Numbered from the stretch's first letter, positions 23,665 through 45,846 are shown. The stretch: DNA of 64,000 bases from an uncultured Acidobacteriota bacterium (GCA_963770895.1 CAVYRF010000002.1:3008001-3072000); one strand, 5' to 3'. Translations and numbers: made by a program. The notes: generated by a model not told the origin, from the letters alone.

Positions 23665-25461
23665 CTAGCTGGCGAGGGTGGCGCCGAGATAGCCTTCGCG
23701 CTCCAGGTACAGCAGGATCTCCTGGGCCGACTGCTCGGGGGAGAGGCTGCCGGCGTCGAGCGTCAGCTCGGCGTCCACCGGCGCCTCGTAGGGGTCGGAG
23801 ATGCCGGTGAACTCCTTGAGGATGCCGGCGCGGGCCTTGGCGTACAGCCCCTTGCGGTCGCGTTGCTCGCAGACGTCGATCGACGTCGCCACGTGCACCA
23901 GCATGAAGCCGCCGCCGGGCTCGACCATCGACCGCACCTCCTTGCGCACCGCGTCGTAGGGGGCGATGGGGGCGCACAGCGCGATGCCGCCGTTGCGGGT
24001 GATCTCGGCGGCGACGAAGCCGATGCGCCGGATGTTGATGTCGCGGTGCTCCTTCGAGAAGTTGAGCTCGGAGGAGAGGTTCTTGCGCACGATGTCGCCG
24101 TCGAGCAGCGTCACCGGCCGGCCTCCCATCTCCATCAGCTTGATCTGCAGGGCGTTGGCGATGGTCGATTTGCCGGCGCCCGACAGGCCGGTGAGGAAGA
24201 TGGTGAAACCCTGCCGCGCGCGCGGCGGGTGGGTGCGGCGCAGCTCGTCGGCCACCTCGGGGAAGGTGAACCAGCCGGGCAGGTCGCTGCCCTCGGCGAG
24301 GCGGCGGCGCAGCTCGGTGCCCGAGATGTCGAGCGTCCGTCTGCCCTCCGGCACTTCGTCCACCGGCAGGTAGGTATCCATGTCCTCGACGTAGACCAGC
24401 TGCTTGAACGGCACCATCTGCACGCCCAGCTCCCCTTCGTGGGCGCGCAGCAGCTCCTGCGCGTCGTACGGGCCGTAGAACGGCTTGCCGGACGAATCGG
24501 CGCCCGGTCCGGCGTGGTCGCGGCCGACGATGAAGTGGGTGCAGCCGTGGTTCTTGCGGATGATGGCGTGCAGCAGCGCTTCGCGCGGGCCGCCCATGCG
24601 CATGGCGAGGCCGAGCAGGGCGAGCTTCGCGGTGTGCTGCGGGAAGCGGTGCAGGATCGCCTGGTAGCAGCGCACGCGGGTGTAGTGATCCAGGTCGCGC
24701 GGCTTGGTCATGCCGACGGTGGGATGGATCAGCAGGTTGGCGCGCGCCTCCTTGGCCGCGGCCAGCGTCAGCTCGCAGTGGGCGCGGTGCATCGGGTTGC
24801 GGGTCTGGAACGCCACCACCCGCCGCCAGCCTTCGCGCGCCATCTCGGCGCGCAGCTCGGCGGGCGTCAGGCGCAGCGGGCGAAAGTCGTAGTGGACCGG
24901 CGCCTGCACGCCTTCCAGGCGGCCGGCGACAAACACCGGGTGGGTGCGGTCCAGCTGGTAGGCGACGCCGGGATGCTTCTTGTTGGTGGTGCCGAACACG
25001 GCCTTGGCGCTGGCCGCCAGGTCGGGCTCCCACATCTCGTCGACGTGCAGGGCGGCGAGCATGACGCCTTCGGCGTCGCGCAGGGCCAGCACTGAGCGCC
25101 CGACGTGCAGCGTCGCGGCCAGCTCGCGCGGGATGTCCAGGGTGATCGGGATCGGCCACAGCGTGCCGTTGGCCAGCCGCATGCCGGCGCAGACCGCGTC
25201 GTGGTCGGCCTGGCCCAGGAAGCCGGTGAGCGGCGAAAAGCTGCCGTCCAGCAGCAGCTCCAGGTCGCAGATCTGCCGCGGCGTCAGGTCCCAGGACGGC
25301 CAGTCGCGGGACGCTGCCTTCAGCTCGGCGGCGCGCTGCGGCTCCGCCATCAGGTTGACCAACGTGCCGCCGTGCGGCTCGATCAAGGCATCGGCGCCGC
25401 TCTCTCTGGGGTCGGCCGGGGCGCCGGAAGGAAACGCAAGGGTATTTTTCATTGAGTCCAT
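23665..25461 (-). CDS. sat: Bifunctional sulfate adenylyltransferase / adenylylsulfate kinase (PAPS synthesis)
   Basis: PHGG; AFQTRNPMHRAH; GPREA; GRDHAG; C-terminal APS kinase GLSGAGKST, LLDGD, FTGISDPYE. Confidence 0.95.
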   Translation of the reverse strand: MDSMKNTLAFPSGAPADPRESGADALIEPHGGTLVNLMAEPQRAAELKAASRDWPSWDLTPRQICDLELLLDGSFSPLTGFLGQADHDAVCAGMRLANGTLWPIPITLDIPRELAATLHVGRSVLALRDAEGVMLAALHVDEMWEPDLAASAKAVFGTTNKKHPGVAYQLDRTHPVFVAGRLEGVQAPVHYDFRPLRLTPAELRAEMAREGWRRVVAFQTRNPMHRAHCELTLAAAKEARANLLIHPTVGMTKPRDLDHYTRVRCYQAILHRFPQHTAKLALLGLAMRMGGPREALLHAIIRKNHGCTHFIVGRDHAGPGADSSGKPFYGPYDAQELLRAHEGELGVQMVPFKQLVYVEDMDTYLPVDEVPEGRRTLDISGTELRRRLAEGSDLPGWFTFPEVADELRRTHPPRARQGFTIFLTGLSGAGKSTIANALQIKLMEMGGRPVTLLDGDIVRKNLSSELNFSKEHRDINIRRIGFVAAEITRNGGIALCAPIAPYDAVRKEVRSMVEPGGGFMLVHVATSIDVCEQRDRKGLYAKARAGILKEFTGISDPYEAPVDAELTLDAGSLSPEQSAQEILLYLEREGYLGATLAS

Positions 25462-31467: not shown

Positions 31468-32345
31468 AAGAAGGACTCCTTGACGACCACGATGTCGCCC
31501 TGGCGCAGCTCGACGTCGGGGTCCTTGCCGGCCAGGATGCGGTTGTAGTCCACCTCAAGCTCGGGTGCACCGGCGGCCGCGTCGGAGCGCTTGACGCGCA
31601 GCTTGTGCGAGGCGCGGTCGGTGAGGCCGCCGGCACGCGCGATGACGGCCAGCACAGTGATGCGGTCGGTGCTCTTGAAGGGCACCGCTCCGGGGTGGTT
31701 CACCGCCCCCAGGCAGTACAGGGTGATCTCCACCGCGTTGGGTACGTTGATCAGGTCGTTGGCGACCAGCGGGATGTTGACCCGCGGATCGGCGCGCACC
31801 AGCAGGTCGTCGAGCGAAATGGTCACCTGGTCGGACAGGCCGTCGTCGGCGCGGCGCAGGACGTACAGGACGTTGCCGCGGTTCTCGGCCACGCCGCCCG
31901 CGGCGGTGAGCGCTTCGAGCAGCGTCCAGCGCCCCGAAAAGGCAAGGCTGCCGGGCAGCTTGACCGCGCCGATGACCGAGATCGGCCGCGATTTGAATTC
32001 CTGCACTTCCACCGCGACGGTGGCGCGCTGCGCGTATTTGGCTTCCAGCAGGAGCTTGAGCTTTTCGCCGACTTCCGTTTCGGTGAGGCCGGCGACCGCC
32101 AGGTCGGGCAGCGGCGCCATGCTGATCGAGCCGTCTTCGGAAACCCTGCGGGTGCCGTTGAGCTCGGGCATTTCGAACACCTTGATGTCAAGCAGGTCGC
32201 GCGGACCGACGCGATAGCCCGGCCGGCTTGGTTCGCCGGGCGCGGACGTTCCCGCCGCAGGTTGAGGGGGCACCTGCGCTCCGGCCAACCCTCCCAGGGA
32301 AAGCAGCCCGGCAAACGCCCATAAGAATAAGTCTATCTTCTTCAC
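31464..32345 (-). CDS. wza: Wza-like polysaccharide export protein (Poly_export + SLBB)
   Basis: YRVGPRDLLDIKVF; VIGAVKLPG; TLLEALTAAGG; LRQGDIVVVKESFF. Confidence 0.88.
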   Translation of the reverse strand: MKKIDLFLWAFAGLLSLGGLAGAQVPPQPAAGTSAPGEPSRPGYRVGPRDLLDIKVFEMPELNGTRRVSEDGSISMAPLPDLAVAGLTETEVGEKLKLLLEAKYAQRATVAVEVQEFKSRPISVIGAVKLPGSLAFSGRWTLLEALTAAGGVAENRGNVLYVLRRADDGLSDQVTISLDDLLVRADPRVNIPLVANDLINVPNAVEITLYCLGAVNHPGAVPFKSTDRITVLAVIARAGGLTDRASHKLRVKRSDAAAGAPELEVDYNRILAGKDPDVELRQGDIVVVKESFF

Positions 32346-32498: not shown

Positions 32499-33809
32499 CT
32501 ACGGCTCCACTGCGTTGGGCGGCCGGCCGGCGGCGAGGTTGAGGTTGAGGCCCAGGGTGTTGATCGAGCGTGCCAGGCCCGGCAGGTTGGAGGTAAAGCG
32601 CGTGCTCGAACCGACCAGGCTGACCACGGCGCCGCGCGCCACGTCGAAGGACAGCGCGCCGCCGAACGACACCAGGTCGTCGTGCCGCTCCGGCGTGCCG
32701 GTGGCGCCGGCGATTTGGGTATAGCCCAGGCTGCCGGTCTCACCGAAGCCGCTGACCTTGGCGCGGGCGCCCAGCTTGACGTGCAGCGCCACGCCGTGGC
32801 GCAGGTCGTCGAAGTAGGAATAGTCGGGCAGCAGCGAATAGACCAGGTTGCGGTTGGCGTAGACGAAGACTTCGGTCGCCGGAGTGATCTCGTAGGAGAC
32901 CGTGATGTGGCCGGTGGTCTTGTCGTAATGGGCGAACGACGACCCCTGCGTCGCCGACAGCGACCGCTGGGCCAGGTCGACCTCGAAGAACAGGCGCCCG
33001 TGCTCGCGCGACAGCTCCAGCACCGGCGCCGTGCCGGAGTTGGAGCGGTTGGGGACGCCGGGCAGGTGGTCGTCAAAGGTGACGTCGGAATGCTCGGCGC
33101 CGGCGCCCACCAGCCAGCCGGGGGCCGGCCGCCAGCGCAGCCCGGCGCGCTCGACGCGCTCCTCGTGGTTGAGCTCGTCGAGCTCTACGGCGGTGGGGTC
33201 GTCGGCGCTGGCGAGGTTGGTCTGGCGGGTGATCTCGCCGCTGACGAAGGGCGACAGGGTGGACGTCGCCGCCACCTCGACGGTGGCCGCGACGTGGTCG
33301 ATGCGGGCGCTGGTCAGGGTGGGCAGCTCGGCGGTGAGGATCTGCTGCTGCGTGTCGCTGCCGGCCGTGAGCCGCAGCGTCAGGCGGTTGAAAAAGCCGT
33401 CGAAGCCGGCGCCGTACAGGCCGTCGAAGCGCCGCCGGTCGCTCTCTTTCTGCCACCAGACGTACTCGGGCAGAGCGTAGGCGGTCCACATCGCCTTGCT
33501 GCCGGCGGGCAGGTAGAAGCGCGCGCCGCCGGCGACGGTGGCGGTGAAGTCGGTGGGGTTCGCGTCGCCCGCCGAGCCCAGCAGGTTCTTGACGTAATCG
33601 ACGTCCTTGAGCTCGAACGCCGGCGCGATCTTGAGCGCGCCCAGGCTGAAGCGGGCGCTCTGGGCTTCCTTTTCCAGCTCGCCCTTGCGATCGATCGGGC
33701 GCCCCTCGGGGCCGCCGGGGGTCGTATACTCGGTGAATTGAGCCCAGGCGGAGCTGGCGACGAACAGCGACAGGAGGGTTGCACTGCAAGACCGGGTGAG
33801 CCGCCGCAT
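32499..33809 (-). CDS. Outer-membrane beta-barrel protein associated with EPS export
   Basis: Signal peptide ending SAWA-Q; alternating amphipathic beta strands; directly upstream of wza. Confidence 0.7.
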   Translation of the reverse strand: MRRLTRSCSATLLSLFVASSAWAQFTEYTTPGGPEGRPIDRKGELEKEAQSARFSLGALKIAPAFELKDVDYVKNLLGSAGDANPTDFTATVAGGARFYLPAGSKAMWTAYALPEYVWWQKESDRRRFDGLYGAGFDGFFNRLTLRLTAGSDTQQQILTAELPTLTSARIDHVAATVEVAATSTLSPFVSGEITRQTNLASADDPTAVELDELNHEERVERAGLRWRPAPGWLVGAGAEHSDVTFDDHLPGVPNRSNSGTAPVLELSREHGRLFFEVDLAQRSLSATQGSSFAHYDKTTGHITVSYEITPATEVFVYANRNLVYSLLPDYSYFDDLRHGVALHVKLGARAKVSGFGETGSLGYTQIAGATGTPERHDDLVSFGGALSFDVARGAVVSLVGSSTRFTSNLPGLARSINTLGLNLNLAAGRPPNAVEP

Positions 33810-33865
33810 AGTCTCTCCGTGCAGCAGAGCGTTGGATTGATGCCGGACCAAGGGAAAGCGGCGCC

Positions 33866-35413
33866 ATGATACGCCATTCCGGCGCGGCTTTGACCGCCCT
33901 GCTGGTCGCCCTGGTGATCTGGGCGCCGCTGCCCTTTGGCGGCGTCACCACCTGGGCCGAGGCGAGCCTGCAGACGCTGGCCTTCCTGGCCCTCGCCCTG
34001 GCGATGGTGGTGGTCGAGCGCGCCTCCGATCTGCGCCCGGTGGCGCTGCCGGCGCTGGCGCTGGGCGGCGTGGCGCTCGTCGGGGTGCTGCAGGCGCTGC
34101 CCTGGCCGGCGGCGCTGGTCGGGGTGCTGTCGCCGGGTGCGGCGCGGCTCTACGGGCAGGCGGGGGCGCTGGCCGGCGCCGCCGCGGCGACCCACTTCAG
34201 CCTGGCGCCCGCCGCCACCTGGGCCGCGGCGCTCAGCTGGGCCGCGACCGCCGCCTGCCTGCTGGCCGGCGCTGCCGCGGGGCGCCGGCGCTATCGACGG
34301 CGTTGGGTGGGCGGAGCGTTGCTGGTCAGCGCCGTGGCCCAGATCTTCGTCGGCGCGCGCGCCGCCAACGCCGGCGACCGCACGCTGTGGGGAGTCGAGG
34401 TGCCGATCATAACCAGCCGGCTGCACGGCACCTTCTTCAACTCCAATCACCTGGCGCTCTACCTGGAGATGGCGCTGGCGGTGTGCTTCGCCTGGGGCTG
34501 GTGGGCGGTGCGCAGCTCGCGTGGGGACGGCGCCCTGGAAAAGCGCATCCTGGCGCTGGCGCCGCCGGCGCTGGTGTGGTTGACGCTCTTTGCCGGGCTG
34601 TCGTTCACCGCCTCGCGCGGCGGCCTGCTGGCGGCCTTGGCCGGCATCCTGGTCCAGGGCGCGCTGCTGGCCACGCTGCGGCGGCGGTGGGCGCCGGCGG
34701 CCCTGGGCGCGGCGGTGGCCGGTGTGGGGATCGCCACGGTGCTCGCCCTGGGATTGCAGTCCGGACCGGCGCGGATGCTGGCGACGCTGCCTTTCGACGT
34801 CAGCCTGGGGGCGCGGCGTCAGGCATGGGCGGCGACGTTCGCGCTGTGGCGGCGCTTTCCGCTGGCCGGCACCGGGCTGGGCACCTTTCGCGACGCCTTC
34901 ACGCTGACGCAGCCGGCGGACCTGGACGGCACCTGGTGGCATGCGCACAGCGGGCCGCTGGAGCTGCTGGCGACCGCGGGTCCGGTGGGGCCTCTGCTGA
35001 TCGCCGCCGGCCTGGTGGCGCTGGTGATGCGCCTGCTGGTCGTGCTGCGGCGCGGGCGGCGCTCCGAAGACCGGGCGGCGGGCCTGGCGGCGCTGGGTGC
35101 GCTGGCCATGGCGGTGGCGCACGAAGGGCTCGATTTTGGGCTGACGATGCCCGCCAATGCGCTCACCCTGGCGGTGCTGGCCGGTGCCGCCGCGACCGCC
35201 CGGCTGGCCGCGCCCGAGCCGTCGCCGTCACTCGGTGGCGGTGGCGGTGCCCGTGCCGCTGCCGGCGCCCGAGCCGGCGGCCAGCCGCACGCGGCCGGGA
35301 CGCACCGCGCCGCCGGCGACGCTTTCGATCTCCAGCAGGTGCAGCCCCGGCCCCAGGGCGGCAGGCAGGGTAAGGGTGGCGCCCGGAGCCACCGGGAAAG
35401 CGCCGACCACTGA
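33866..35413 (+). CDS. O-antigen ligase (Wzy_C) family membrane protein
   Basis: PLPFGGV; RLHGTFFNSNHLA; TASRGG; GTGLGTF; HAHSGPLE. Confidence 0.88.
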   Translation: MIRHSGAALTALLVALVIWAPLPFGGVTTWAEASLQTLAFLALALAMVVVERASDLRPVALPALALGGVALVGVLQALPWPAALVGVLSPGAARLYGQAGALAGAAAATHFSLAPAATWAAALSWAATAACLLAGAAAGRRRYRRRWVGGALLVSAVAQIFVGARAANAGDRTLWGVEVPIITSRLHGTFFNSNHLALYLEMALAVCFAWGWWAVRSSRGDGALEKRILALAPPALVWLTLFAGLSFTASRGGLLAALAGILVQGALLATLRRRWAPAALGAAVAGVGIATVLALGLQSGPARMLATLPFDVSLGARRQAWAATFALWRRFPLAGTGLGTFRDAFTLTQPADLDGTWWHAHSGPLELLATAGPVGPLLIAAGLVALVMRLLVVLRRGRRSEDRAAGLAALGALAMAVAHEGLDFGLTMPANALTLAVLAGAAATARLAAPEPSPSLGGGGGARAAAGARAGGQPHAAGTHRAAGDAFDLQQVQPRPQGGRQGKGGARSHRESADH

Positions 35414-36994
35414 GTCGTCCAGGCGCACCTCGACGGCGGCGCCCAGCAGCGGCGCGGCGTCGACCGCGATGATGAACGCCGGCGCCTCGCCGGCGGCCAG
35501 CAGCTCCAGGCGGGAGGTCGCGCCCTGCACGTCCCAGGCGGCGGCGGGCCACTCGCGGGCCGCCAGGCGCGTCAGGGCCTGCGCCGCCGCCGTCTCGCCC
35601 GCGGCGTCGCCGGCGGCGTGGGCGATCGCCGCCTTGACCTGCCAGGTGTTGGGGCGGTCCAGCCAGCTGTGCGGCAGCTCGACCAGCGCATCCTGGGCGT
35701 CGGCCGCGGCGTGGCCCTTGGCCAGCAGCATCTTGGCCTTCAGCAGCCGGTAGGGCGCCCACTCCTCGCTCCAGGCCGTGGCGTAGGTGCGCTCCAGCAC
35801 CTCGGCGCGCGGCAGATCGCCGGTGACCACCGCCGCCATGGCGTCCAGGCGGGGATCCAGGTCGCGGCAGAAACCGGCCAGGCGGGCGAGCGGCCGCTGC
35901 GGCAGGGGGCACTCGAAGAGGCGGCAGCGGTCCAGGTTCCAGGCCAGCTGCCGGGCCAGGCGCTCCGCCGTGCGGTGGTCGACCGAGCCGGGCGGGCAGC
36001 TTTCCAGCGCGCGGGTGAGCAGCGAAAGGTAGCTGCGGCCGGGCCGCGCTTCGGCGGCGATGGCCAGGAAGCGCTCGCGCGCGTCGGGCGCCCCCGGCCG
36101 CTCCGCCGTCGCGGCCAGGCGGTACGCCAGGCTTTCGCGCAGGACCTGGTTCCAGCGATCGCGGGCGGCGCAATAGCCCGTCCAATCGGCGTGCTGGGAG
36201 TAGAACTGCTGCACCGTGTCCCACGCTTCCGGGTCGTGGGGGATGACCGCAAAGGCTTCGGCGCGGCTCGCCGCCGTGGTCAGCCAGGGCGCCAGCAGGC
36301 CGGCGAGCACCTGCGGATCGGCAAAGACGCTGGTCAGCAGCTGCTTTTCGCGCTCGCGCTTGGCGGCCGAGAGCTGCGGCCACAGCTCCAGGTAGGCGGC
36401 GGCCAGCAGGCGGGCGGCGTCGGTGCGCCCGGGGGCCAGCGCCATCGCCGCTTCCAGGGGCCGCTCCCAGGTCGGCGCCTGGGTGAACAGCCGCGTGTCG
36501 TGCGCCTGCGACCACGAGAGATAGGTCGCGGCGCCCAGCACCATCGCCGCCTCCCAGGCCGCCGGGCGCGCCGTCAGGCCGGCCCCCGCCAGCCCCGCCG
36601 TCTCCGCCAGGCGCGACGCCGCGGTGCCCTGCCGGCCGTCGTCGCCGGCGGCCGGCAGGTCGGCGCGACGGGTGGGATCGAGCTCGGCGGCGAGCGCGGC
36701 GCGCGCCGCCCGCAGGTCGACGCGGCCCGGATCGGGCTCGTACTCCAGCTCGCGCGGCACCGTGGCGCCGCCGGCCACCAGCCACGCCGCCATCTGTTCC
36801 TGGCGTGCCGCCAGCGCGTGCTGCTGCGCCATCGCCACCGCCGCCAGCGCCAGCCCCGCCAGCGCGCCGCCGGCACGCCACGCCAGCCCGCCGCGATGCA
36901 GCCACGCCCCTGGCGTGCCGGCCTGCCCGGAGCCGCCGCCGCGATCGCCGGCGGGCTCCGAGCCGGGCACCGAACCCGGCCGTTGCATGTTCAT
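35228..36994 (-). CDS. Hypothetical membrane-anchored helical/TPR-like protein
   Basis: N-terminal hydrophobic segment, helical repeats, C-terminal beta-rich segment; codon bias supports this frame. Confidence 0.6.
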   Translation of the reverse strand: MNMQRPGSVPGSEPAGDRGGGSGQAGTPGAWLHRGGLAWRAGGALAGLALAAVAMAQQHALAARQEQMAAWLVAGGATVPRELEYEPDPGRVDLRAARAALAAELDPTRRADLPAAGDDGRQGTAASRLAETAGLAGAGLTARPAAWEAAMVLGAATYLSWSQAHDTRLFTQAPTWERPLEAAMALAPGRTDAARLLAAAYLELWPQLSAAKREREKQLLTSVFADPQVLAGLLAPWLTTAASRAEAFAVIPHDPEAWDTVQQFYSQHADWTGYCAARDRWNQVLRESLAYRLAATAERPGAPDARERFLAIAAEARPGRSYLSLLTRALESCPPGSVDHRTAERLARQLAWNLDRCRLFECPLPQRPLARLAGFCRDLDPRLDAMAAVVTGDLPRAEVLERTYATAWSEEWAPYRLLKAKMLLAKGHAAADAQDALVELPHSWLDRPNTWQVKAAIAHAAGDAAGETAAAQALTRLAAREWPAAAWDVQGATSRLELLAAGEAPAFIIAVDAAPLLGAAVEVRLDDSVVGAFPVAPGATLTLPAALGPGLHLLEIESVAGGAVRPGRVRLAAGSGAGSGTGTATATE

Positions 36995-37104
36995 GGCCCG
37001 ATGATACCAAGGCCCTCTACGAGGCGCGCCGCCGGCGGCGTCAGGCACCCCCGATCGACCTGGCGCAGAGGCGGGGCTGCGGGGGGAGCCGTCGCCGCTG
37101 ATCT

Positions 37105-38451
37105 ATGCTCATGGCGATGTCCGGCCGCGGAGTGCGCTTCGATCCTCCCGCGCTGCCGCTGACGCCGGCGGTGCGCTGGATGCTGCTGCGCGCCTTCGGG
37201 CCGCCGGGCGCCGCCCTGGGTGCGGTGGGAGCGGTTGGGGCAGCGGGCGCGGCAGGTGCAGCGGGTGGGGCGGCGCCGCCGGCGGTGGCGCCCGCGGCGG
37301 CGCTGGCGCTCAGCCGGCGCTTCGACCTTGCGGCGCGCATCGCGGCGCGCCAGGGGCGGGCGCGGCTGGCGGCGGAGCTGGGCGAAACCGCGGTGGTGGA
37401 AGGCTTCGTGCACGACCGCGCGGCGGCGGCCGCGGCAACGCTGCGCGCCATGGCGCTGGTCGAGCAGGTGGCGGCGGCGGCGGCGGCGCGGCAGATTCCG
37501 GTGGTGTTCCTCAAGCTGGCGGCCCTGGAGCTGCTGGGCGTGCTGGCGCCGGGCAGCCGGGCGGGTTGCGACCTGGACGTGCTGGCGCCGGCGGAGCGGG
37601 CCGGCGAGCTGCTGCAGGCGCTGGTCGAGCGCGGCTTTCGCGCCTCGCCGCTGCCCGAGCAGGAGCACCAGCTGGCCGCCCTGGAGGGGCCGGACGGAGT
37701 TGTCGAGGTGCACCGGATGCTGCTCGGCGTGCGCCTCGATGGCCGGCCCGACCAGCCTGACCAGCGCCCCGGGCAAACCCGGCAACCCCGGCGACGCGCG
37801 CGATCAGCGCGGTGGGCCGACTTGCAGCGAGCGGGCCTGCTGACCGCGCTGCCGCGGCTGCCGGGCGCCGCGGCGGTGCCGGTGCCGGCGGTGGCCGCGG
37901 CGCATGCGCTGGTGCACGGCATCGCCCAGCACGGCTGGGCGCCGGGCTCGTATTCGCTGCTCAGGATGGTCGGCGACCTGATCGACCTGGGCTTTGCCGA
38001 GTCCCGTCCGCTCGCCGCGAGCGTCGCCGCATGGGTCGCCGGCGACGTGACGCCGGTGGAGGTGGAGGCGGCGCGGCGCTTGGCGGCGGAGCTGGCGGCG
38101 GGTGCGTGGGAGGATTCGCGGGCGCCCGAGGCGGTGCTGCTGCGGCACGCCCTGGCCGGCCGTCTGGACCCGGAATACCAGCGCTCGCTGCGCCTGGCGC
38201 TGTTCCGCCGGCAGCCGAGCGACCTGCCGCAGGCGCTGCGGCTGGCGCGGGCGGTCGCCGGCACCGTGTGGCTCAGCCGCGCGCGGGTGGACGCGATCTA
38301 CGGGCCGCCGCGCCACCGCCTGGGCTACCTGGGCCGCCGGCTGCTGCGACCGCTCGACCTGCTGGCCCGGCTCGCCAGCTCCGCCCGCCAGGCCTGGCGC
38401 GTCCGCCGCCGCCCGGCCGGGAACGCGGGCGGCGGCGGCACGGCGCCGTAG
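37105..38451 (+). CDS. Nucleotidyltransferase family protein (NTP_transf_5-like, as in RiPP clusters)
   Basis: IPVVFLKLAAL; R..CDLDVL; VEVH; HALVH; LRMVGDLIDL. Confidence 0.75.
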   Translation: MLMAMSGRGVRFDPPALPLTPAVRWMLLRAFGPPGAALGAVGAVGAAGAAGAAGGAAPPAVAPAAALALSRRFDLAARIAARQGRARLAAELGETAVVEGFVHDRAAAAAATLRAMALVEQVAAAAAARQIPVVFLKLAALELLGVLAPGSRAGCDLDVLAPAERAGELLQALVERGFRASPLPEQEHQLAALEGPDGVVEVHRMLLGVRLDGRPDQPDQRPGQTRQPRRRARSARWADLQRAGLLTALPRLPGAAAVPVPAVAAAHALVHGIAQHGWAPGSYSLLRMVGDLIDLGFAESRPLAASVAAWVAGDVTPVEVEAARRLAAELAAGAWEDSRAPEAVLLRHALAGRLDPEYQRSLRLALFRRQPSDLPQALRLARAVAGTVWLSRARVDAIYGPPRHRLGYLGRRLLRPLDLLARLASSARQAWRVRRRPAGNAGGGGTAP

Positions 38452-38471
38452 CGGTCAGGCCGCTGGTCTGT

Positions 38472-38621
38472 CTAGTTGGTGCACACCGTGGGGCAATAGG
38501 TTTCGAAGTAGGTGACGCACTCGCTGCGCGGGCCGGTCATGGCGGCGACCCGGGGGAGCTGGCCGTGGCTGAGCTGCTGCAGGGTTTCGCGGCTCAGCTT
38601 CATCGACTTTTTGGTCTTCAT
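38472..38621 (-). CDS. Putative lanthipeptide-like precursor peptide (49 aa)
   Basis: RBS aggaga; MKTKKSMKLSRETLQQLSHGQLPRVAAMTGPRSECVTYFETYCPTVCTN; core has 3 Cys and 6 Ser/Thr. Confidence 0.7.
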   Translation of the reverse strand: MKTKKSMKLSRETLQQLSHGQLPRVAAMTGPRSECVTYFETYCPTVCTN

Positions 38622-38769
38622 CAACGTTTCTCCTGGGGCTGCGAAGCGTTCGAGCGGACGCGCCCGAGCGCGCGCGGCGCTCCTACTTCGCAGGGTGCCT
38701 GGCGGCGGGTGAAGCGGTCCCCGCCGGGCTCGCCGCCGCCGGCGCAGGCGGACATATACTCCTCCCGCC

Positions 38770-40275
38770 GTGAGCAAGCCCCGATCCAACCGCGGCCGGC
38801 GCCCCCCCGCCGCCGCCGGTCCCGCCGCCTCGGCGTCGAGGCGCCGCCAGACGGTGGCCGGCGCCGTCGCCGCGATGCCCGCGGTGCCCTGGAAGGCGCT
38901 GGCGCCGACCGGAAAGGCGGCGGTGGCGCTGCTCTGGCTGCTGGTGCTGGTGCCCGCCTGGTGGTATTCGCCGGCGGCCAAGGATGCGTTCCGGTTGCCC
39001 AAGCTGATGCTGGCCGAGTGGCTGGGCCTTGCGTCGCTTTTGCCGCTGGCCTGGCAGCTGTCGCGCGTGCCGCGGATCGGGTGGCGCGACCTGTGGCGAT
39101 GGCCGGCGGTGCGCGCCGTGGTGCCGCTCCTGGCGATCGCGACCCTGGGGCTGGCGACCAGCGCCCACGCCCTGCACGTGCGGCAGGGGCTGATCGACCT
39201 TTGGATCGGCGCGGCGTGCCTGGTGGGGTGGAGCGTGGCGCTGCCGGCCGGCCGGCTGGGACGCCTGCTCGGCCTGCTGCTGGTGCCCGCGATCGCCCTG
39301 GCCGTGCTGGGCATCCTGCAGTTCCACGGCGTGCTGCACGCGCCGGTCGGCGGCATGCACGGGACGGCGCCGCGCTTCAGCGTGATCTCGCGGGCAGGCA
39401 ATCCTGGCGACCTGGGCGCTTTCCTGGTGCTCCCCTGCCTGGTCGCGCAGTGGCTGCTGGCGCGGGCGCCGCGGCGGCGGGGGTGGCTGCTGGCGGCGCT
39501 GGCGATCTGTGCCTACGGCGTGGCGATCACCCAGACGGTCGCCGCGCTGTCGGCGCTGCTGGTCGGCAGCCTGGTGCTGTGGGGCGCCGCCCTGGGACGC
39601 GGCGTCGCCGCCGGCCAGCGCGCCAGGATCGCCGGGGCCGTGGTGGCGCTCGGCCTGGTCGCCGCCCTGGCCGCCGCCGCGGTGCCGGCGCTGCGCCAGC
39701 GCGTGGCGGACAAGCTGGCCGCGGCGCGGCACGGAGACTGGAACGACGTGCTGACCGGGCGGGTGGACGGTTGGCGGGCGGCCCTGTGGATGCTCGGCCA
39801 GCACCCCTGGAGCGGGGTCGGCCAGGGCGCTTTCCGCGCCGAGTTCGCGCCCGCCAAGCTGGCCCTGCTGGACCGCGGCGCCAGGCCGTTCTACTCGGGC
39901 CAGCAGCAGAGCTTCGTCAACGCCCACGACGAGGCGCTGGAGGTTGGCGCCGACCTGGGCTGGCCGGGCCTGGTCGCGCTCGCCTGGGCGCTCTGGGTCC
40001 TGGCGGCGGCGGTGCGTGCCGGCGATGCCCGCGATGCCAGCAATGGGGGCGATGGCGGTGTCGAGCGGTCCGACCCCACGGCTGGCCAGGCGCCCGGCGA
40101 GCGGGCGGCGCGGGCGGATGCCGCCCTGGCCATGGCGGGGACGGCGGCGCTCGGCGTGCTGGCGCTGGTCGACTTCCCGTTCCGCATCGCGCTGGTGGCG
40201 TTCCCGGCCCTGCTGCTCCTCGCCTGGGTGCTGGCGCGGGCCGGCGCCGCCGTCGCGGCGGAGGGTGGCGCGTGA
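38770..40275 (+). CDS. O-antigen ligase (Wzy_C) family membrane protein
   Basis: DAFRLPK; GNPGDLG; GR...W; GVGQGAF; NAHDEALE; FPFR. Confidence 0.85.
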   Translation: MSKPRSNRGRRPPAAAGPAASASRRRQTVAGAVAAMPAVPWKALAPTGKAAVALLWLLVLVPAWWYSPAAKDAFRLPKLMLAEWLGLASLLPLAWQLSRVPRIGWRDLWRWPAVRAVVPLLAIATLGLATSAHALHVRQGLIDLWIGAACLVGWSVALPAGRLGRLLGLLLVPAIALAVLGILQFHGVLHAPVGGMHGTAPRFSVISRAGNPGDLGAFLVLPCLVAQWLLARAPRRRGWLLAALAICAYGVAITQTVAALSALLVGSLVLWGAALGRGVAAGQRARIAGAVVALGLVAALAAAAVPALRQRVADKLAAARHGDWNDVLTGRVDGWRAALWMLGQHPWSGVGQGAFRAEFAPAKLALLDRGARPFYSGQQQSFVNAHDEALEVGADLGWPGLVALAWALWVLAAAVRAGDARDASNGGDGGVERSDPTAGQAPGERAARADAALAMAGTAALGVLALVDFPFRIALVAFPALLLLAWVLARAGAAVAAEGGA

Positions 40276-40724
40276 AGGGGCGGCCGCTGGCGGTGGCGTT
40301 GATCGTCGTGCTGGCGGTGGCGCTCGGCGCCCAGAGCGTGCGCTGGCGCGACCGGCTGCTGGCCAGCGAGCTGGTCAACGAGGTGGAGGTGATCTCGGTC
40401 AGCGCCGCCACCCGCGGCTCGGCGACGCTCGAGCGGGTGCTGCCCGGCGTGCTGGCGGCGTTGCGGCGCGCCGGCGACGCCGATCCGCTGGACGTGGAGG
40501 TGCCGCTGGCGCGCGGCTCGCTGTACTACCTGCTGCGGCGTCCCGACGAGGCGATCGCCAGCTACCAGAGCGCCGCGGAGCTGGAACCGCACGCCGAGAT
40601 CCTGCTGCACCTGGGCGACGCCCTGCTCGCCGCCGGGCGCCAGGACGAAGCCCGCCGCAGCTATCGCGACGCGCTTCGCCTGGCCCCCTGGCTGTGGCCG
40701 CTGGTGCCTGCCGGGGAGCGGTAG
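40272..40724 (+). CDS. Membrane-anchored TPR protein
   Basis: GTGA-coupled to ligase; N-terminal TM; TPRs (RGSLYYLL..PDEAIASY, HLGDALLAAG..DEARRSY..AL). Confidence 0.75.
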   Translation: MKGRPLAVALIVVLAVALGAQSVRWRDRLLASELVNEVEVISVSAATRGSATLERVLPGVLAALRRAGDADPLDVEVPLARGSLYYLLRRPDEAIASYQSAAELEPHAEILLHLGDALLAAGRQDEARRSYRDALRLAPWLWPLVPAGER

Positions 40725-40758
40725 CGTCCCGCTCGCCGCCCCCCGGCAAGCGACCTGG

Positions 40759-40947
40759 CTACCAGGGCGACGGCTCAGGGTCCGACAGGTGCCATGGCAC
40801 CGGGGGCGGATTGGAGGTCTTCCAGGGCGAGGGTTCGGGATTGAGCCGGATCGGCCCGATCGGCAGCCACGGCGACGGCTGAGGGCCGCTGCCGCGGACG
40901 GCGCGCAGCGCCTGGCCGGGCGCTGTCGAACGGTGAATCTTCTTCAT
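40759..40947 (-). CDS. Putative multi-core precursor peptide with four PxPxPW repeats (62 aa)
   Basis: RBS aaaaggag; MKKIHRSTAPGQALRAVRGS-GPQPSPW-LPIGPIRL-NPEPSPW-KTS-NPPPVPW-HLS-DPEPSPW. Confidence 0.72.
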   Translation of the reverse strand: MKKIHRSTAPGQALRAVRGSGPQPSPWLPIGPIRLNPEPSPWKTSNPPPVPWHLSDPEPSPW

Positions 40948-41087
40948 TGCGTCTCCTTTTCCTGAAGTACGGCACACAAGATAGAAGCATGTGCATTTGA
41001 GCGCGCAATGCGTGACCGCGCTCCCGCGAGACGTCCCCCCTGCTTCTGGTAGCATGGCGGCGGCAGCCATGCCTGCCTGGCCGGGCC

Positions 41088-41525
41088 ATGACCCCTTCCT
41101 CCAACCAAACCGCCGCGGATGACCCCGGCACGCGCGTCGCGGCGGCGTTGCGCGACATGGCGCGCCAGCAGCCGATCGTGCTGGCCGTCAGCGGCGACTG
41201 CATGGCGCCGGTGCTGCGCCACGGCGACCGCGTGCAGGTGGCGCCGGCGCGCCGCTACTGGCCGGGCGACATCGTGGCGCTGCCGACGGCGCAGGGGCGG
41301 GTGGCGGTGCACCGGTTGCTCGGCTACCGGCTGGCCGCGGGGCGCTGGCTGTGCGTGACGCGCGGCGACCTGTGCGCCAGCCCCGACGCGCCGCTGCCGG
41401 CGCGGCTGCTGCTGGGGCGGGCCAGCGTGCGCCCGTCGCTCGCCGCGCGGGTCCGGGCCGTCGCGGCGTTCGCCGCTCTCGCGTTTGCCGCCGCCCGGCG
41501 CCGGGCGGCGGGTCGCCCGGCGTGA
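41088..41525 (+). CDS. S24/S26 family peptidase-like protein
   Basis: VSGDCMAPVLRHGDRV (GxSM-like with Cys at the nucleophile position); GDIV; HR; TRGD. Confidence 0.75.
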   Translation: MTPSSNQTAADDPGTRVAAALRDMARQQPIVLAVSGDCMAPVLRHGDRVQVAPARRYWPGDIVALPTAQGRVAVHRLLGYRLAAGRWLCVTRGDLCASPDAPLPARLLLGRASVRPSLAARVRAVAAFAALAFAAARRRAAGRPA

Positions 41526-42445
41526 GCTTCGGCGCCAAATACCTGCGGCGTCCCGATCGCTTCCCGCACGTCGAGGACAGCGAGCCGTGGGGCGAATGCC
41601 AGGTGGCGCTCGACCTGCCGGGCGGTCCCTACCACTTCACCGGTCTTTCGGCGGCGCAGCTGGATGGCGTGCGGGCGGCGTTCCCCGGCGCCGTCGCGGC
41701 GGGTGCTGCCGCCGGCGCGACGGCCCCCTGCCGGCTGCTGCGTGCCGCCGCCGGCGACTTCCTGCCGGTCGACACGCGCGGCTGGGAGTACGCCATGGAT
41801 GCCGACTGGCAGCCCCAGGCGGTGCGGTTCGCGGGGCTGGGGCTGCTGGCGCGGCTGGATTGGAAGCCGGGCTTGACGGGCGGCGCGCTGTGGACCTGCG
41901 AGGACGGCGGCGCGCGCTTTCCGGGCGTGTTCGAAAACTTCCTGCGCATCCTGGTCGCCTACCGCCTGGTGGAGATCGGCGGTGTCGTGCTGCACAGCGC
42001 GGGGGTGGTCAAGAACGGCGCGGCGTTCCTGTTTCTGGGGCGCTCCGGCGCCGGCAAGACCACCATTTCGCGGCTCAGCCTGGCGCGCGGCGGCGAGGTG
42101 CTGAGCGACGACCTCAACGCCCTGTTCCCCGCCCCCGGCGGCTGCGAGGTGCGCCAGCTGCCCTTCACCGGCGACCTGGGGGAGCGCGGCGCGGTGCGGC
42201 GGGCGGTGCCCCTGGGCGCGCTGGTGCGGCTCGAGCAGGACACCCTGGACGCGGTGTCGCCGCTGCCGCGGGCGCGCGCGCTGGCCTGCCTGCTGGCCTG
42301 CTCGCCGTTCGTCAACGTCGATCCCTACCGGCGCGATCGCCTGGAGGGAGCCCTGCTCGCCCTGCTCGCCGCCGCCCGCCGCCCGGCGCTCGCGCTGCGC
42401 TTCTCGTTGGGCGGTGGCTTCTGGTCTATAATCGACGCAAAATGA
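41522..42445 (+). CDS. HPr-kinase-related P-loop protein
   Basis: LHSAGVV..GAAFLFLGRSGAGKTT; VLSDDL; PFTG; GTGA-coupled. Confidence 0.75.
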   Translation: MSFGAKYLRRPDRFPHVEDSEPWGECQVALDLPGGPYHFTGLSAAQLDGVRAAFPGAVAAGAAAGATAPCRLLRAAAGDFLPVDTRGWEYAMDADWQPQAVRFAGLGLLARLDWKPGLTGGALWTCEDGGARFPGVFENFLRILVAYRLVEIGGVVLHSAGVVKNGAAFLFLGRSGAGKTTISRLSLARGGEVLSDDLNALFPAPGGCEVRQLPFTGDLGERGAVRRAVPLGALVRLEQDTLDAVSPLPRARALACLLACSPFVNVDPYRRDRLEGALLALLAAARRPALALRFSLGGGFWSIIDAK

Positions 42446-42819
42446 AGCAGATCGAAGGTTTAGGCTTGCAACCCGACAGCGTTCTCCAGCGCTCGGGCGA
42501 TGTGCGCTTTCGCGTCGTCGACGACGAAGGGGTGGTGGTGCGCCAGGCGGCGGGCGAAGTGCTGGTGCTCAACGCCATGGCAACCCGCATCCTGGCCCTT
42601 GCCGACGGCGTCGCGCCGGTCGACGCGTGGGTCCAGGCCCTGCTCGCCGAGTACGACGTGGACCGTCAGGTGCTGCAACGGGACGTGCTCGCCTTTGCCG
42701 CGGAGCTGCTGGAGGAGGGCATGCTGGAACCCGCCGCCGCCCCCGCCAGCCCGCCGCCTGCGACAATGGCGACGGCGCCCGGTGCCGGGGCAGGCCCGAC
42801 GCATAAGGACGGCGCATGA
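42442..42819 (+). CDS. PqqD-family RiPP recognition element
   Basis: FRVVDDEGVVV..VLNAMATRIL.LADG..LLAEYDVD..LQRDV..F..EL...GML; ATGA-coupled on both sides. Confidence 0.9.
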   Translation: MKQIEGLGLQPDSVLQRSGDVRFRVVDDEGVVVRQAAGEVLVLNAMATRILALADGVAPVDAWVQALLAEYDVDRQVLQRDVLAFAAELLEEGMLEPAAAPASPPPATMATAPGAGAGPTHKDGA

Positions 42820-43949
42820 GCTTTCAAGACGTGCTGCAGCGCACCTGGACCGGCAACCACCTGTTTTCGGTTCTGGTGGAGCTGACCTATCGCTGCAACC
42901 TCGACTGCTTCTTCTGCTACAACGACCTGGCACAGCGCGGCAAGCCGCTGTCGGCGGCACAATATTGCTCATTCTTCGCCGACCTGCGCGATCTGCAGGT
43001 GCTCAACCTCACCCTCACCGGCGGTGAGCCGCTGGCGCATCCGGACTTTCTACAGCTGGGCGCCAAGGCGCGCGAGCTGGGCTTCGTGGTGCGCATCAAG
43101 TCGAACGGTCATTCGCTGCGCGGCGCCATGGCGCGCCGCATCCGCGACCAGGTCGATCCCTTTCTGATCGAAGTCAGCCTGCATGGCGCGACGGCGGCGA
43201 CGCACGACCGCCAGACGCGGGTGCCGGGGAGCTTCGATCGATTGCTGGCCAACCTGCGCGCGGCGCGGCGCCTGGGGCTGCGCCTCAAGATCAACTCCAC
43301 GATGACGGCGTGGAACGAGCACGAAGTCGAAGGCATGCTGGCGCTGGCCGACGATCTGGGGCTGCCGCTGCAAATAGATCCCGAGGTGACGCAGCGCGAC
43401 GACGGCGGCCGCGAGCCGCTGGCGATCACCGCGTCCCACGCCGGCGTGCAGCGCCTGTTCGAGCTGCTGGCGGCCAGGGCCGAGGGCGCCGCGGTCCAGG
43501 ACGCCTCCGGCGCAACGTCCCCCGCGCCCAGGCCGGCGGGCGCTCCGGTCGAGCTCATGCGCCAGGCCGACGACGGGTTGCCGACGGGCGGGGTCGACAA
43601 GCACTGCGGCGCCGGTTCCTCGGGCATCGCCGTCGATCCGTTCGGCAACGTCTACCCCTGCGTGCAGTGGCGGCGGCCGGTCGGCAATCTCCATGAGCGC
43701 TCGATCCGCGACATCTGGGCCAGCTCAGCCGGCCTGGACCAGGTGCGCGCCTTGACGGTTGCCGCCAAGCAGCGGGTCGACGAATTTGGCGAGGGGGGGG
43801 CGCTGCTGGCGTTCTGTCCGGGCAACGCCGCGGCGTTGACCGGCGATCCGCTGCAAATCTATCCGGGGGCGCTGCGCCGGATGGAGATCGCCTCCGCGGC
43901 GCAACAGGCGATCAAAGCCAGACGGGCGCTGCTGCCGATCCTGCGCTGA
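42816..43949 (+). CDS. Radical SAM protein with SPASM/Twitch-type C-terminal domain
   Basis: CNLDCFFC; LTGGEP; SNG; CGAG..AVDPFGNVYPC; GNL; FCPG. Confidence 0.93.
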   Translation: MSFQDVLQRTWTGNHLFSVLVELTYRCNLDCFFCYNDLAQRGKPLSAAQYCSFFADLRDLQVLNLTLTGGEPLAHPDFLQLGAKARELGFVVRIKSNGHSLRGAMARRIRDQVDPFLIEVSLHGATAATHDRQTRVPGSFDRLLANLRAARRLGLRLKINSTMTAWNEHEVEGMLALADDLGLPLQIDPEVTQRDDGGREPLAITASHAGVQRLFELLAARAEGAAVQDASGATSPAPRPAGAPVELMRQADDGLPTGGVDKHCGAGSSGIAVDPFGNVYPCVQWRRPVGNLHERSIRDIWASSAGLDQVRALTVAAKQRVDEFGEGGALLAFCPGNAAALTGDPLQIYPGALRRMEIASAAQQAIKARRALLPILR

Positions 43950-43981
43950 CCGGCGGCGCAGCAGCAGGGTCTGGCTGCACT

Positions 43982-44158
43982 TCAGGACGAAATAGGGCCG
44001 GTGGGGCAGTGGCCGCGGTCCGCCTTGGCCGGCGGCGACGGGCTGCAGATGGACGCCATGGCCTCCAACGGCTCGCGAAACAGGATGCGCGGCGGAGCAT
44101 AGGGACGGCGCGCGCTGGTCCCGTCGGTCTCCGCTGCCGGGTGCTGTCTGGAGATCAT
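43982..44158 (-). CDS. Putative RiPP precursor with YxxP leader (58 aa)
   Basis: Purine-rich RBS aaggggaag; MISRQHPAAETDGTSARRPYAPPRILFREPLEAMASICSPSPPAKADRGHCPTGPISS; adjacent to rSAM/PqqD. Confidence 0.78.
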   Translation of the reverse strand: MISRQHPAAETDGTSARRPYAPPRILFREPLEAMASICSPSPPAKADRGHCPTGPISS

Positions 44159-44433: not shown

Positions 44434-45846
44434 TCAGACGCCGCGCGACGACAGGACGATCCGCACCGTGCGCAGCAAGATCGAAAGGTCGAGCCATAGC
44501 GTCCAATTGGCGGCGTACGCCAGGTCGTAGCGCAGCTTGTTCTGCGGGCTTGAGTGGTATTCGCCGTTGACCTGCGCCAGACCGGTGAGCCCCGGCGCGA
44601 GCGAAAAGCGCTCGGCGTAGCCGGGGATCTCCTTGACATAGCGCTGCACGAACCCGGGCCGCTCGGGGCGCGGCCCCACCAGGCTCATGCTGCCCGCCAG
44701 GACGTTCCACAGCTGCGGGATCTCGTCCAGGCGGAAGCGCCGCAACAAGGCGCCGCAGGGGGTGAGCCGCGGATCGCCGGGTTGCGCCAGCACCTCGCCG
44801 GAGTCGGCTTCGGCGTCGATGCGCATCGTCCGCAGCTTGAGCAGGGTGAAGGGGCGCTGGCCGCGGCCGACACGCACCTGGGCGTACACCACCGGCCCCG
44901 GCGAGGTGAGCCGCACCGCCAGCGCACAGGCGGCCAGCACGGGGACGGCGGCGGCCAGCAGCAACCCCCCCGCCGTCAGGTCGAGCAGGCGCTTGAGCGG
45001 CCAGTTGATCCGCCACTCCGATTCGCGCACCACCTCGATCAGCGGCAGGTCGTGCACCCAGCGGTAGCGCATGCGGCCGATGAGGCTTTCGAAGGGCCCC
45101 GGCAGCAGCAATACGTTGGTGTGATCGGGCCGCGTTCCGGCCAGGGCGTCGATCAGCCGCGTCTGCCACGAGTCGCCGCTGTCGGCAAGGATGATGTCTT
45201 CGACGATGCCCGCGGCCAGCAGGTTGGGCAGGTCGTCCGCCGTTCCCAAAAGCGGTCCCAGGGCAGGCTCGACGGGATCGACAGCGGCGCGAGCGGCCGC
45301 CGGCGGCTGGCCCGGCAGCGGCACGAAGCCGGCGACGGTGAGCCCGTGCCAGCGGTACTTGGCCAGGGTGCGGGCGATCTCGCCGGCCGCCTGCCCGTCG
45401 CCGACGATCGCGACCCGCCGTTCGCGCAGCTGGCTGCTGCGGTCGATGACGCTGCGCCAGAGCAACAGCGCCGCCAGGTCGAACAGCACGTACAGCAGCA
45501 GCACCGAGCGCGGGAAGCTGCGGAAGGTAAAAAAGAAGTAGCCGGTGAGCGCGGCGCCCTGGATCGCCGCGGCGCCGGCGAGCAGGCGCAGCGCCTCGGT
45601 GCGTGAGCGCGGGTGCGGCCTGTCGTAGAAACCGAAAAAGTAGAGGCTGGCGAACTGCGCCAGCAGCGCGACCCCCCAGTCGCGGCGCAGGAACAGCAAC
45701 CGGTCGCCGGGCAGCAGCCCGGCGGTGAACGGCAGCGGCAGGTGGATGCGGACCCAGAACGCGGCGCCAAACGCCGCGGCCGTGGCCGCCGCGTCGCCGA
45801 TCGCGCGCAGGACCTGCTTGCCGCGGCTTTCTCGCCGCAGGCTCAT
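44434..45846 (-). CDS. Priming undecaprenyl-phosphate sugar phosphotransferase (WcaJ/WbaP family)
   Basis: LKRLLD; KLRTM; DPRLT; RLDEIPQLWNVL.GSMSLVGPRPE; PGLTGLAQV. Confidence 0.95.
   Translation of the reverse strand: MSLRRESRGKQVLRAIGDAAATAAAFGAAFWVRIHLPLPFTAGLLPGDRLLFLRRDWGVALLAQFASLYFFGFYDRPHPRSRTEALRLLAGAAAIQGAALTGYFFFTFRSFPRSVLLLYVLFDLAALLLWRSVIDRSSQLRERRVAIVGDGQAAGEIARTLAKYRWHGLTVAGFVPLPGQPPAAARAAVDPVEPALGPLLGTADDLPNLLAAGIVEDIILADSGDSWQTRLIDALAGTRPDHTNVLLLPGPFESLIGRMRYRWVHDLPLIEVVRESEWRINWPLKRLLDLTAGGLLLAAAVPVLAACALAVRLTSPGPVVYAQVRVGRGQRPFTLLKLRTMRIDAEADSGEVLAQPGDPRLTPCGALLRRFRLDEIPQLWNVLAGSMSLVGPRPERPGFVQRYVKEIPGYAERFSLAPGLTGLAQVNGEYHSSPQNKLRYDLAYAANWTLWLDLSILLRTVRIVLSSRGV

Follow-up and report, generated by a model that had tools for sequence, protein, structure and literature searches.

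What is made by a set of peptide-modifying genes that lies within an exopolysaccharide (EPS) locus, and is its product connected with the polysaccharide? The question arises from a stretch of 64,000 nucleotides (nt) of an uncultured Acidobacteriota bacterium (GCA_963770895.1, CAVYRF010000002.1:3008001-3072000), which we call the window. Four genes at positions 41088-43949 code for a peptidase, an HprK-like kinase, a PqqD protein, and a radical S-adenosylmethionine (rSAM) enzyme; a small gene on the opposite strand, pepC, lies just beyond them. An initial annotation regarded these and several neighbouring genes (37105-44158) as a cassette for a ribosomally made peptide with post-translational modifications (a RiPP), onto which a Wzy_C ligase may transfer a glycan. 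We put at roughly 0.7 the probability that pepC and the coupled operon constitute a ribosomal-peptide maturation system, namely an rSAM-containing relative of the systems for linear polyphosphorylated peptides (LPP). The predicted product is probably a cross-linked, phosphorylated small peptide. The cassette is best read as a previously undescribed rSAM-containing variant of the phosphorylated RiPPs of the LPP/paeninodin type.

The precursor is the starting point of this reading. pepC (43982-44158, minus strand) encodes 58 amino acids (aa); a purine-rich stretch, GAAGGGGAAG, stands 7 nt before its ATG, and the GC content of its third codon positions (GC3) is 0.85. The window's own genome has a single copy. 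The start of pepC coincides with the right-hand end (44158) of the region given in the initial annotation. We compared it with 15 related loci, i.e., 20-kb stretches around the ortholog of the rSAM gene in 15 related genomes, four of which come from other families of the order. pepC adjoins the rSAM gene in all 15 of them (tblastn, E from 2e-22 to 2e-7). A loose leader pattern detected pepC in 63 loci of a larger set of 80 that spans several phyla (described below). This pattern set no constraint on the C-terminus, and all 68 pepC copies from the 80-locus set end with Ser, which is the sole invariant Ser of the precursor. The other invariant columns of the alignment are P23, I25, E29, E32, A35, K45, and C51, while Y20 and C38 are present in at least 90% of the rows. 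The leader covers approximately M1-A35 and has the form Y20-x-x-P23-x-I25...E29..E32..A35. Its Y/WxxP element is of the type to which recognition proteins such as lasso B1 and LppB bind. The predicted core, S36-S58, contains C38, K45, C51, and the C-terminal Ser.

The published motif of LPP precursors is YxxPxVLxHQxIxFETxxS, and Ser3 of the LPP core is polyphosphorylated, according to the available part of the paper (Popov et al., Nat Commun 2026, PMC13381572). Compared with this motif by eye, pepC agrees at Y20, P23, I25, L26, R28, E29, and L31. In the same alignment the invariant Ala35 takes position -1, and Cys38 falls on the position of LPP Ser3. A predicted complex of the PqqD protein with pepC scored 0.56, against 0.43 for the one control used, a difference that weighs neither for nor against binding. 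The sequence conservation supports the prediction that pepC is a genuine RiPP-type precursor conserved across phyla, as the initial annotation had supposed for a peptide of this region.

The extent of the family was gauged by means of the kinase. A scan with a five-sequence kinase alignment yielded at least 399 confirmed loci with relatives of the kinase in species-representative genomes, and the 80-locus set consists of the best 80 of these. In a library of 1.84 billion representative sequences the kinase family forms 299 clusters at 50% identity (E ≤ 1e-30). Thus the family is large, and it is also unstudied. Custom hidden Markov models (HMMs) recovered PqqD from 76 of the 80 loci, the rSAM enzyme from 72, and the peptidase from 64. 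The hosts belong to Thermoanaerobaculia, Holophagae, Vicinamibacteria, Competibacteraceae and other Gammaproteobacteria, Myxococcota, and Beta- and "Delta"-proteobacteria. In particular, pepC, peptidase, kinase, PqqD, and rSAM genes co-occur in Acidobacteriota, Gammaproteobacteria, Myxococcota, and further groups. Closer to the window, an ortholog of the rSAM enzyme with 57-77% identity is present in the genomes of 27 of 40 relatives (E ≤ 1e-89; some copies are split or fragmentary). In the searchable literature we found no description of a cassette that combines an HprK-type kinase, a radical SAM/SPASM enzyme, PqqD, and a precursor, nor of rSAM cross-linking joined with HprK-type phosphorylation and a peptidase of the signal peptidase I (SpI) kind with a Cys nucleophile.

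The operon itself is compact. On the plus strand follow one another the S24/SpI-like peptidase (41088-41525), the HprK-like P-loop kinase (41522-42445), the PqqD recognition protein (42442-42819), and the Radical_SAM and SPASM enzyme (42816-43949). The translational coupling noted in the initial annotation is visible as overlaps of GTGA at 41522-41525 and of ATGA at 42442-42445 and 42816-42819. The domain content given there for 37105-44158 was likewise confirmed by Pfam and NCBIfam matches, and these two collections revealed no lasso cyclase or B2 protease among the open reading frames (ORFs) called in that region, just as had been stated. An AsnB-like gene at 14748-16973 scored 142 against a lasso-cyclase cut-off of 525 and exceeded the asparagine-synthase cut-off. 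Scans for sigma-70 promoters and intrinsic terminators around pepC and in the gap 40650-41150 returned one weak terminator-like site (40921-40935); apart from it, nothing in these regions rose above shuffled sequences.

The first enzyme of the operon matches Peptidase_S24 (PF00717, E 2.1e-5) and, below the cut-off, the model of archaeal-type signal peptidase I (TIGR02228, E 8.8e-7). Its AlphaFold2 (AF2) model has a pLDDT of 92.7. In fold it is most like the LexA C-domain, human SEC11 (7p2q_A, TM 0.53), SipA, and SpsB, with E from 2e-3 to 2e-2; this fold search gave no match at E ≤ 1e-3. In 64 aligned rows (the window protein and 63 loci) Cys is the usual residue at the position of the nucleophile and Ser an occasional one; the window protein has Cys38 there. 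H75, D94, and D100 are invariant in a 35-row alignment. The base is His, not Lys. The family looks like a Cys/His version of the archaeal/endoplasmic reticulum (ER)-type signal peptidase fold, and the window protein is a candidate SpI-like leader peptidase (archaeal/ER-type signal peptidase I, clan SF). For LppS of the LPP systems, the available text of PMC13381572 gives the catalytic set S29/H68/D93 and a requirement for the recognition protein.

The kinase has NCBIfam matches well short of the cut-offs: ScmC (E 5.7e-9, 35.7 bits vs 125) and HprK_rel_A (E 1.4e-4, 21.1 bits vs 200). Foldseek searches with its AF2 model (pLDDT 92.8) returned PEPCK (E ~1e-6) and HprK/P (1kkl and 1jb1, E ~1e-3, 23% identity). 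The P-loop residues G173, S175, G178, K179, and T181 and the run S195-D196-D197 are invariant in 46 sequences; in PsmK the metal site is D158/D159 (PMC6993621, available part). Fold model and motifs both argue for a P-loop enzyme of the HprK/PEPCK fold, with a predicted activity like that of LppK or PadeK. Homologues of the kinase carry the precomputed Pfam label PF27840, for which we found no occurrence in the searchable literature.

The PqqD protein matches PF05402 (E 4.7e-14) and reaches 24.4 bits against the PqqD_rel_X cut-off of 35. Its nearest solved relatives are the RiPP recognition elements (RREs) of lasso peptides TbiB1 (2.9e-6) and TfuB1 (4.4e-5). The protein is a discrete RRE of the lasso B1 type and is predicted to bind the YxxP leader.

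The last enzyme contains the Radical_SAM (PF04055, 1.6e-17) and SPASM (PF13186, 2.7e-8) domains. Its nearest NCBIfam models are NirJ, AhbD, ScmE, MftC, and PqqE, all of them far below the cut-off. The scores are 93.9 against 400 for ScmE, 65.2 against 400 for ScmF, and 82.7 against 625 for StsB. The resemblance to NirJ, AhbD, MftC, and PqqE raises the question of whether the system could rather produce a small redox cofactor or metabolite that is excised from the precursor, as in the cases of pyrroloquinoline quinone (PQQ) and mycofactocin, and is then decorated by the kinase or a transferase. The discrete PqqD and the small number of invariant core residues (C, K, C, and the terminal S) would agree with this. 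However, the low scores of those same models, together with the lack of recurrent dehydrogenase or oxidoreductase neighbours in 14 annotated distant loci, make it highly improbable. Besides, the kinase, the SpI-like peptidase, and the YxxP leader follow the logic of LPP and lasso systems as far as these are described in the available sources, where the peptide itself is the product.

For the LPP-like maturation system we can outline the following steps. PqqD would bind the YxxP leader and present pepC to the enzymes. The rSAM/SPASM enzyme would introduce a cross-link, or two of them, at the pair of conserved Cys residues; this pair of residues and the type of enzyme are compatible with thioether cross-links as in sactipeptides or ranthipeptides. 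The HprK-like kinase would phosphorylate Ser one or more times, most likely at the invariant C-terminal Ser, as in paeninodin and pseudomycoidin, whose precedent this residue would fit by analogy. The SpI-like peptidase, with its Cys/His/Asp set, would cut the leader after the invariant Ala35, at an A-x-A-like site, as LppS does in LPP. Now that the precursor and its invariant residues (C38, K45, C51, and the terminal Ser) are named, this chemistry becomes testable.

Several points weigh against the LPP-like reading. The boundary between leader and core of pepC was set by eye against the published LPP motif, and, since the phosphorylated Ser3 of LPP is Cys in pepC, the target site of the kinase is a guess. 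Gene starts in such GC-rich DNA were chosen by us, i.e., they are predicted, and almost all comparison genomes are metagenome bins. In the window ORFs that were searched with NCBIfam and Pfam we found no MsbA-like ABC exporter; Pfam annotation shows an exporter in some distant cassette loci, e.g., L075 and L087. The usual partner of pepC in distant loci, a giant protein with a Peptidase_C25 domain (see below), does not occur at the window locus. Finally, the nucleotidyltransferase gene near the operon may serve the polysaccharide rather than the peptide.

Two further peptide genes had been proposed by the initial annotation along with pepC. All three are indeed minus-strand ORFs with coding-like GC3 and, before the start, purine-rich stretches resembling Shine-Dalgarno sequences, but pepA and pepB have no syntenic homologue, and NCBIfam searches with pepA, pepB, and pepC gave no family match. 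pepA (38472-38621, 49 aa, Cys-rich) has AGGAGA before its ATG and GC contents of 0.48/0.48/0.92 at the three codon positions. It was rejected as a precursor of the cassette in view of the lack of a syntenic homologue in the 15 related loci. Seven weaker look-alikes are dispersed in the same genome (E from 2e-4 to 8e-3). The leader of pepA is of the K-L-S-R-E-T-L-Q-Q-L type and precedes a Cys-rich tail; the look-alikes share a leader with R-E-T-L-R-x-L and have Cys-containing tails. pepA and its look-alikes may be a family of their own, made up of small peptides that are secreted or modified. pepB (40759-40947, 62 aa, Pro-rich) has AAGGAGA before its ATG and a GC3 of 0.86; the motif P-S-P-W / P-V-P-W is repeated three to four times in it. 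It was rejected too, as the matches listed include no syntenic homologue but only Pro-rich low-complexity sequences. The gap between the TPR and peptidase genes, in which pepB lies, varies from 0 to ~5 kb in relatives. pepB is lineage-specific, and its relevance to the cassette is doubtful.

Whether the peptide is tied to the polysaccharide is a separate matter. The flanks are as the initial annotation described them: Wzc (28900-31467, minus strand) and Wza (31464-32345, minus strand) lie on the left, and the priming polyprenyl glycosylphosphotransferase (44434-45846, minus strand) scores 365.5 bits against the TIGR03025 cut-off of 295.6. Between them, on the plus strand, a block of three genes precedes the operon. 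The first one, NTP_transf_5 (37105-38451), lies 2.6 kb upstream of the operon and matches PF14907 (E 8.5e-11), which we take to be the Pfam family of PsmN and LppN. The second (38770-40275) belongs to the Wzy_C family (PF04932, E 8.5e-12, 45.5 bits vs a gathering score of 31.7) and overlaps by GTGA (40272-40275) the third (40272-40724), which encodes a TPR protein with an N-terminal hydrophobic segment (TPR Pfam families, E 4e-12). The product of 38770-40275 is a Wzy_C-family membrane protein that may be a polymerase, a ligase, or an O-oligosaccharyltransferase. A second Wzy_C gene (33866-35413, plus strand) is situated within the conserved EPS backbone. Searches of PDB sequences with both Wzy_C proteins gave no informative match, and 38770-40275 matched no NCBIfam model.

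Wzy_C-family O-oligosaccharyltransferases such as PilO glycosylate the C-terminal Ser of pilin. One can imagine that kinase and nucleotidyltransferase activate the peptide at its terminal Ser, that Wzy_C loads it with a glycan carried on undecaprenyl, and that the conjugate primes or anchors the EPS or is a signal for it. The invariance of the C-terminal Ser speaks for this. The initial annotation had also stated that such kinases act on a C-terminal Ser and that a nucleotidyltransferase-family protein is linked to glycosylation, and the available part of PMC6993621 bears this out: PadeK and PsmK attach phosphate to the C-terminal Ser at its side chain, and the addition of hexose to that phosphate requires PsmN, a protein of the PF14907 type. 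Similarly, the available text of PMC13381572 places LPP clusters in capsular-polysaccharide loci of Bacilli, often beside paeninodin-like lasso clusters.

How regular the association with EPS genes is was assessed on a kinase tree of 79 rows, built by a quick method. The EPS-marked loci form essentially one well-supported clade of Acidobacteriota (clade A), which comprises 47 rows, including the window cassette. Markers are present in 41 of them, and the remaining six are mostly short contigs. The tree requires the EPS label to change 11 times or more, and six of these changes are forced by starred branches. We call a locus well-flanked if at least 6 kb is available on both sides. An EPS marker accompanies the cassette in all 28 well-flanked loci of clade A, along with Wzy_C in 27, PF14907 (by a custom HMM) in 26, and C25 in 14. 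Outside the clade, the corresponding figures for 18 well-flanked loci are 5, 2, 4, and 14 (in L098, a partial PF14907 gene was added by Pfam). Among 14 distant loci annotated with Pfam, polysaccharide genes adjoin the cassette in four: a GT4 and Glycos_transf_4 gene in L072, Wzc upstream and Wzy_C downstream in L077, Wzz/Wzc in L099, and PF14907, glycosyltransferases, and EpsG in L102. The other 10 have no polysaccharide genes beside the cassette, and their neighbours are housekeeping or unrelated genes. Since the EPS context is largely confined to one clade, the greater part of the linkage may go back to one event that was then inherited. Overall, the link between cassette and EPS that the initial annotation proposed is partly supported: it is complete in clade A (28/28 well-flanked loci) and mostly absent outside it, where 13 of 18 well-flanked loci have no EPS genes.

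Relatives that lack the cassette tell more about its neighbours. We considered five relatives without a kinase ortholog, three of the same family and two of the same order. All five retain Wzy_C (44-57% identity), the TPR gene, and a gene for a protein of 606 aa from the EPS backbone; three retain NTP_transf_5 (PF14907; tblastn). Wzy_C, TPR, and NTP_transf_5 thus persist without the cassette and belong to the backbone of the EPS locus; they are not partners reserved for the peptide. This goes against the initial annotation, in which Wzy_C and the nucleotidyltransferase had been assigned to the peptide, and so does the absence of Wzy_C from 16 of the 18 loci outside clade A.

In the lineage of the window the cassette fills a variable slot, which extends from the NTP_transf_5/Wzy_C/TPR block to the priming transferase; the latter forms its right border and is syntenic with metF in relatives. 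The contents of the slot differ among the cassette-less genomes. In G016, the space from TPR to the priming transferase is taken up by a C25 giant of the PorU-like kind and, after it, a complete lasso cluster of the kinase type, which comprises B1, B2, an HprK-related kinase, a cyclase (E 1e-111), and a precursor whose leader is of the lasso kind (L109, G016 C1:4420000-4439999, positions 10135-17595; the precursor of 70 aa is at 15856-16068). In G014 it holds a lasso-type PqqD and an HprK-related kinase, and in the other three genomes unrelated genes or an insertion sequence element. Another module, which consists of PqqD, a lasso-B2-like protein, and a protein like HprK-related kinase A, occurs in 16 clade-A EPS loci and in L074 and L075 (for example, L050 14800-17500) and is not present in the window. 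A cyclase-like gene accompanies this module only in L074 and L104.

The lasso cluster of the kinase type in the same slot of a relative is one more argument for a glycan-bearing peptide, as are the four distant cassettes beside polysaccharide genes. The persistence of the supposed partners without the cassette, the concentration of the EPS context in one clade, and the lack, among the scanned window ORFs, of an exporter that could carry the peptide to the periplasmic Wzy_C site all argue against it. We consider the scheme very unlikely, and transfer of a glycan to the peptide by Wzy_C is a purely conjectural step. Of the initial interpretation, the idea of a cassette that matures a peptide, probably with phospho-Ser at its end, stands; a dedicated Wzy_C ligase is unsupported. 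It is plausible that the cassette is co-expressed with matrix production.

A different neighbour dominates in distant loci. There, pepC lies directly 3' of a gene for a protein of 1300-2700 aa that ends in Peptidase_C25. In 36 of the 45 loci with both genes, the two share a strand and the start of pepC follows the end of the C25 ORF within 400 nt, and L016, L017, and L065 contain tandem pairs of C25 and pepC. These giants match the PorU sortase model with E from 1e-42 to 1e-61, below the cut-off. The peptide could therefore be a substrate of the PorU-like C25 protein, a ligand for transpeptidation to a surface molecule, or an inhibitor, and its position in the EPS locus would be incidental. 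The frequency of C25 in well-flanked loci, 14 of 18 outside clade A and 14 of 28 inside it, is in favour of such a role. On the other hand, there is no nearby C25 gene at the window locus or at about half of the clade-A loci. The window's own genome encodes two PorU-like C25 proteins of ~1400 aa far from the window (C2:167605-171849 and C2:4609414-4613691, i.e., L107 and L108; E 1e-57 and 1e-61, below the cut-off), neither with pepC beside it; one of the two has an AgmC-like N-terminal region. The C25 giant that precedes a lasso cluster in G016 indicates that the tie with C25 is not specific to pepC. To our knowledge, there is no biochemical precedent for such a role, and we regard it as unlikely.

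A wider scheme is that a cross-linked, Ser-terminal phosphopeptide might be a building block of the envelope which, once exported, is joined through its terminal phospho-Ser to a glycan or surface molecule via the conserved NTP_transf_5/Wzy_C block or via a PorU-like C25 transpeptidase. We think this quite improbable. If it were true, the present family, LPP, and paeninodin-like lasso peptides would be interchangeable peptide caps or anchors of EPS, and this would explain why differing peptide clusters of the kinase type occupy one EPS slot. Apart from any such role, the association of kinase-type peptides with polysaccharides, reported for Bacilli, recurs in Acidobacteriota with two cluster types in one slot, which provides a comparative handle on the role of the phosphopeptide.

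The surroundings of the cassette deserve a brief description. Open frames are abundant at ~72% GC, and therefore the frames in the window were picked by the periodicity of GC3. The EPS locus occupies 1-45846 and contains many GT4 genes, a carbamoyltransferase, an AsnB-type amidotransferase, and genes for the synthesis of 3'-phosphoadenosine 5'-phosphosulfate (PAPS). The latter, at 22850-25461 on the minus strand, encode a bifunctional sulfate adenylyltransferase/APS kinase (893 bits vs a cut-off of 669) and a CysQ-like phosphatase, and are a hint of a sulfated polysaccharide. A protein of 405 aa (17999-19216, minus strand) resembles, though only weakly (E 3e-7 and 1e-6), the kinase region found in lanthionine synthetases of class III/IV and probably represents a Ser/Thr-kinase-like domain in the EPS locus. 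Two conserved proteins of the EPS backbone, of 606 aa (35228-37048, minus strand) and 450 aa (32499-33851, minus strand), belong to no NCBIfam family; the second has only a weak match to EpsL (E 0.008). Elsewhere in the same genome, C1:740000-757000 (L106) contains two B12-binding radical SAM proteins, a weak HprK-related protein, and a GT4-like protein, as well as a radical SAM/SPASM protein and a weak PF14907-like match.

How does the window cassette compare with systems already described? With mycofactocin and PQQ it shares the pair of PqqD and rSAM/SPASM enzyme and the dependence on a handful of conserved residues toward the C-terminal end of the precursor; it differs in having a kinase and an SpI-like peptidase and in lacking partners of the MftD/MftE or PqqB/C type. 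SynChlorMet (ScmC/ScmD/ScmE/ScmF) and HPr-rel-A, according to the NCBIfam/TIGRFAM definitions, likewise unite an HprK-like protein, a PqqD relative, and rSAM/SPASM enzymes. No product is known for them, and for SynChlorMet no paper was found in the searchable literature. The window cassette falls below the cut-offs of both and has one rSAM enzyme rather than two, plus the SpI-like peptidase.

The likeness to paeninodin and pseudomycoidin, within the available part of PMC6993621, includes the HprK-like kinase with a DD metal site, a PF14907-type protein, and the YxxP leader with a PqqD of the B1 type. The C-terminal Ser of those peptides takes one to three phosphates and then hexose, and pepC is Ser-terminated as well. 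Unlike them, the window cassette has no macrolactam cyclase and no B2 protease, and the cross-linking presumably proceeds via the rSAM enzyme.

The LPP systems (LppA/K/B/S/D/N), which produce linear polyphosphorylated peptides in Bacillota, are compared here on the basis of the available text of PMC13381572. Both kinds of cassette have a discrete PqqD and an HprK-like kinase. The candidate leader peptidase of the window resembles the SpI-like peptidase of LPP, an enzyme of the archaeal signal peptidase type that depends on the recognition protein, and an NTP transferase of the PF14907 type lies nearby, although in the lineage of the window it is an EPS-backbone gene. The YxxP...L leader motif, the setting in polysaccharide loci, and the co-location with lasso modules of the kinase type are also common to LPP and the window family. 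LPP is called restricted to Bacillota, and the main text of that paper does not contain "radical", "SPASM", "Acidobacter", or "C25"; the window family, in contrast, occurs in Gram-negative phyla and is often paired with a PorU-like C25 giant. Its precursors always end with Ser and have Cys at the position of phospho-Ser3, and the nucleophile of its peptidase is mostly Cys, whereas the SpI triad of LPP is Ser/His/Asp. The window cassette lacks an MsbA-like exporter (LppD) and has an extra rSAM/SPASM enzyme. The LPP product is linear, while the presence of this enzyme argues for a cross-linked product of the window cassette.

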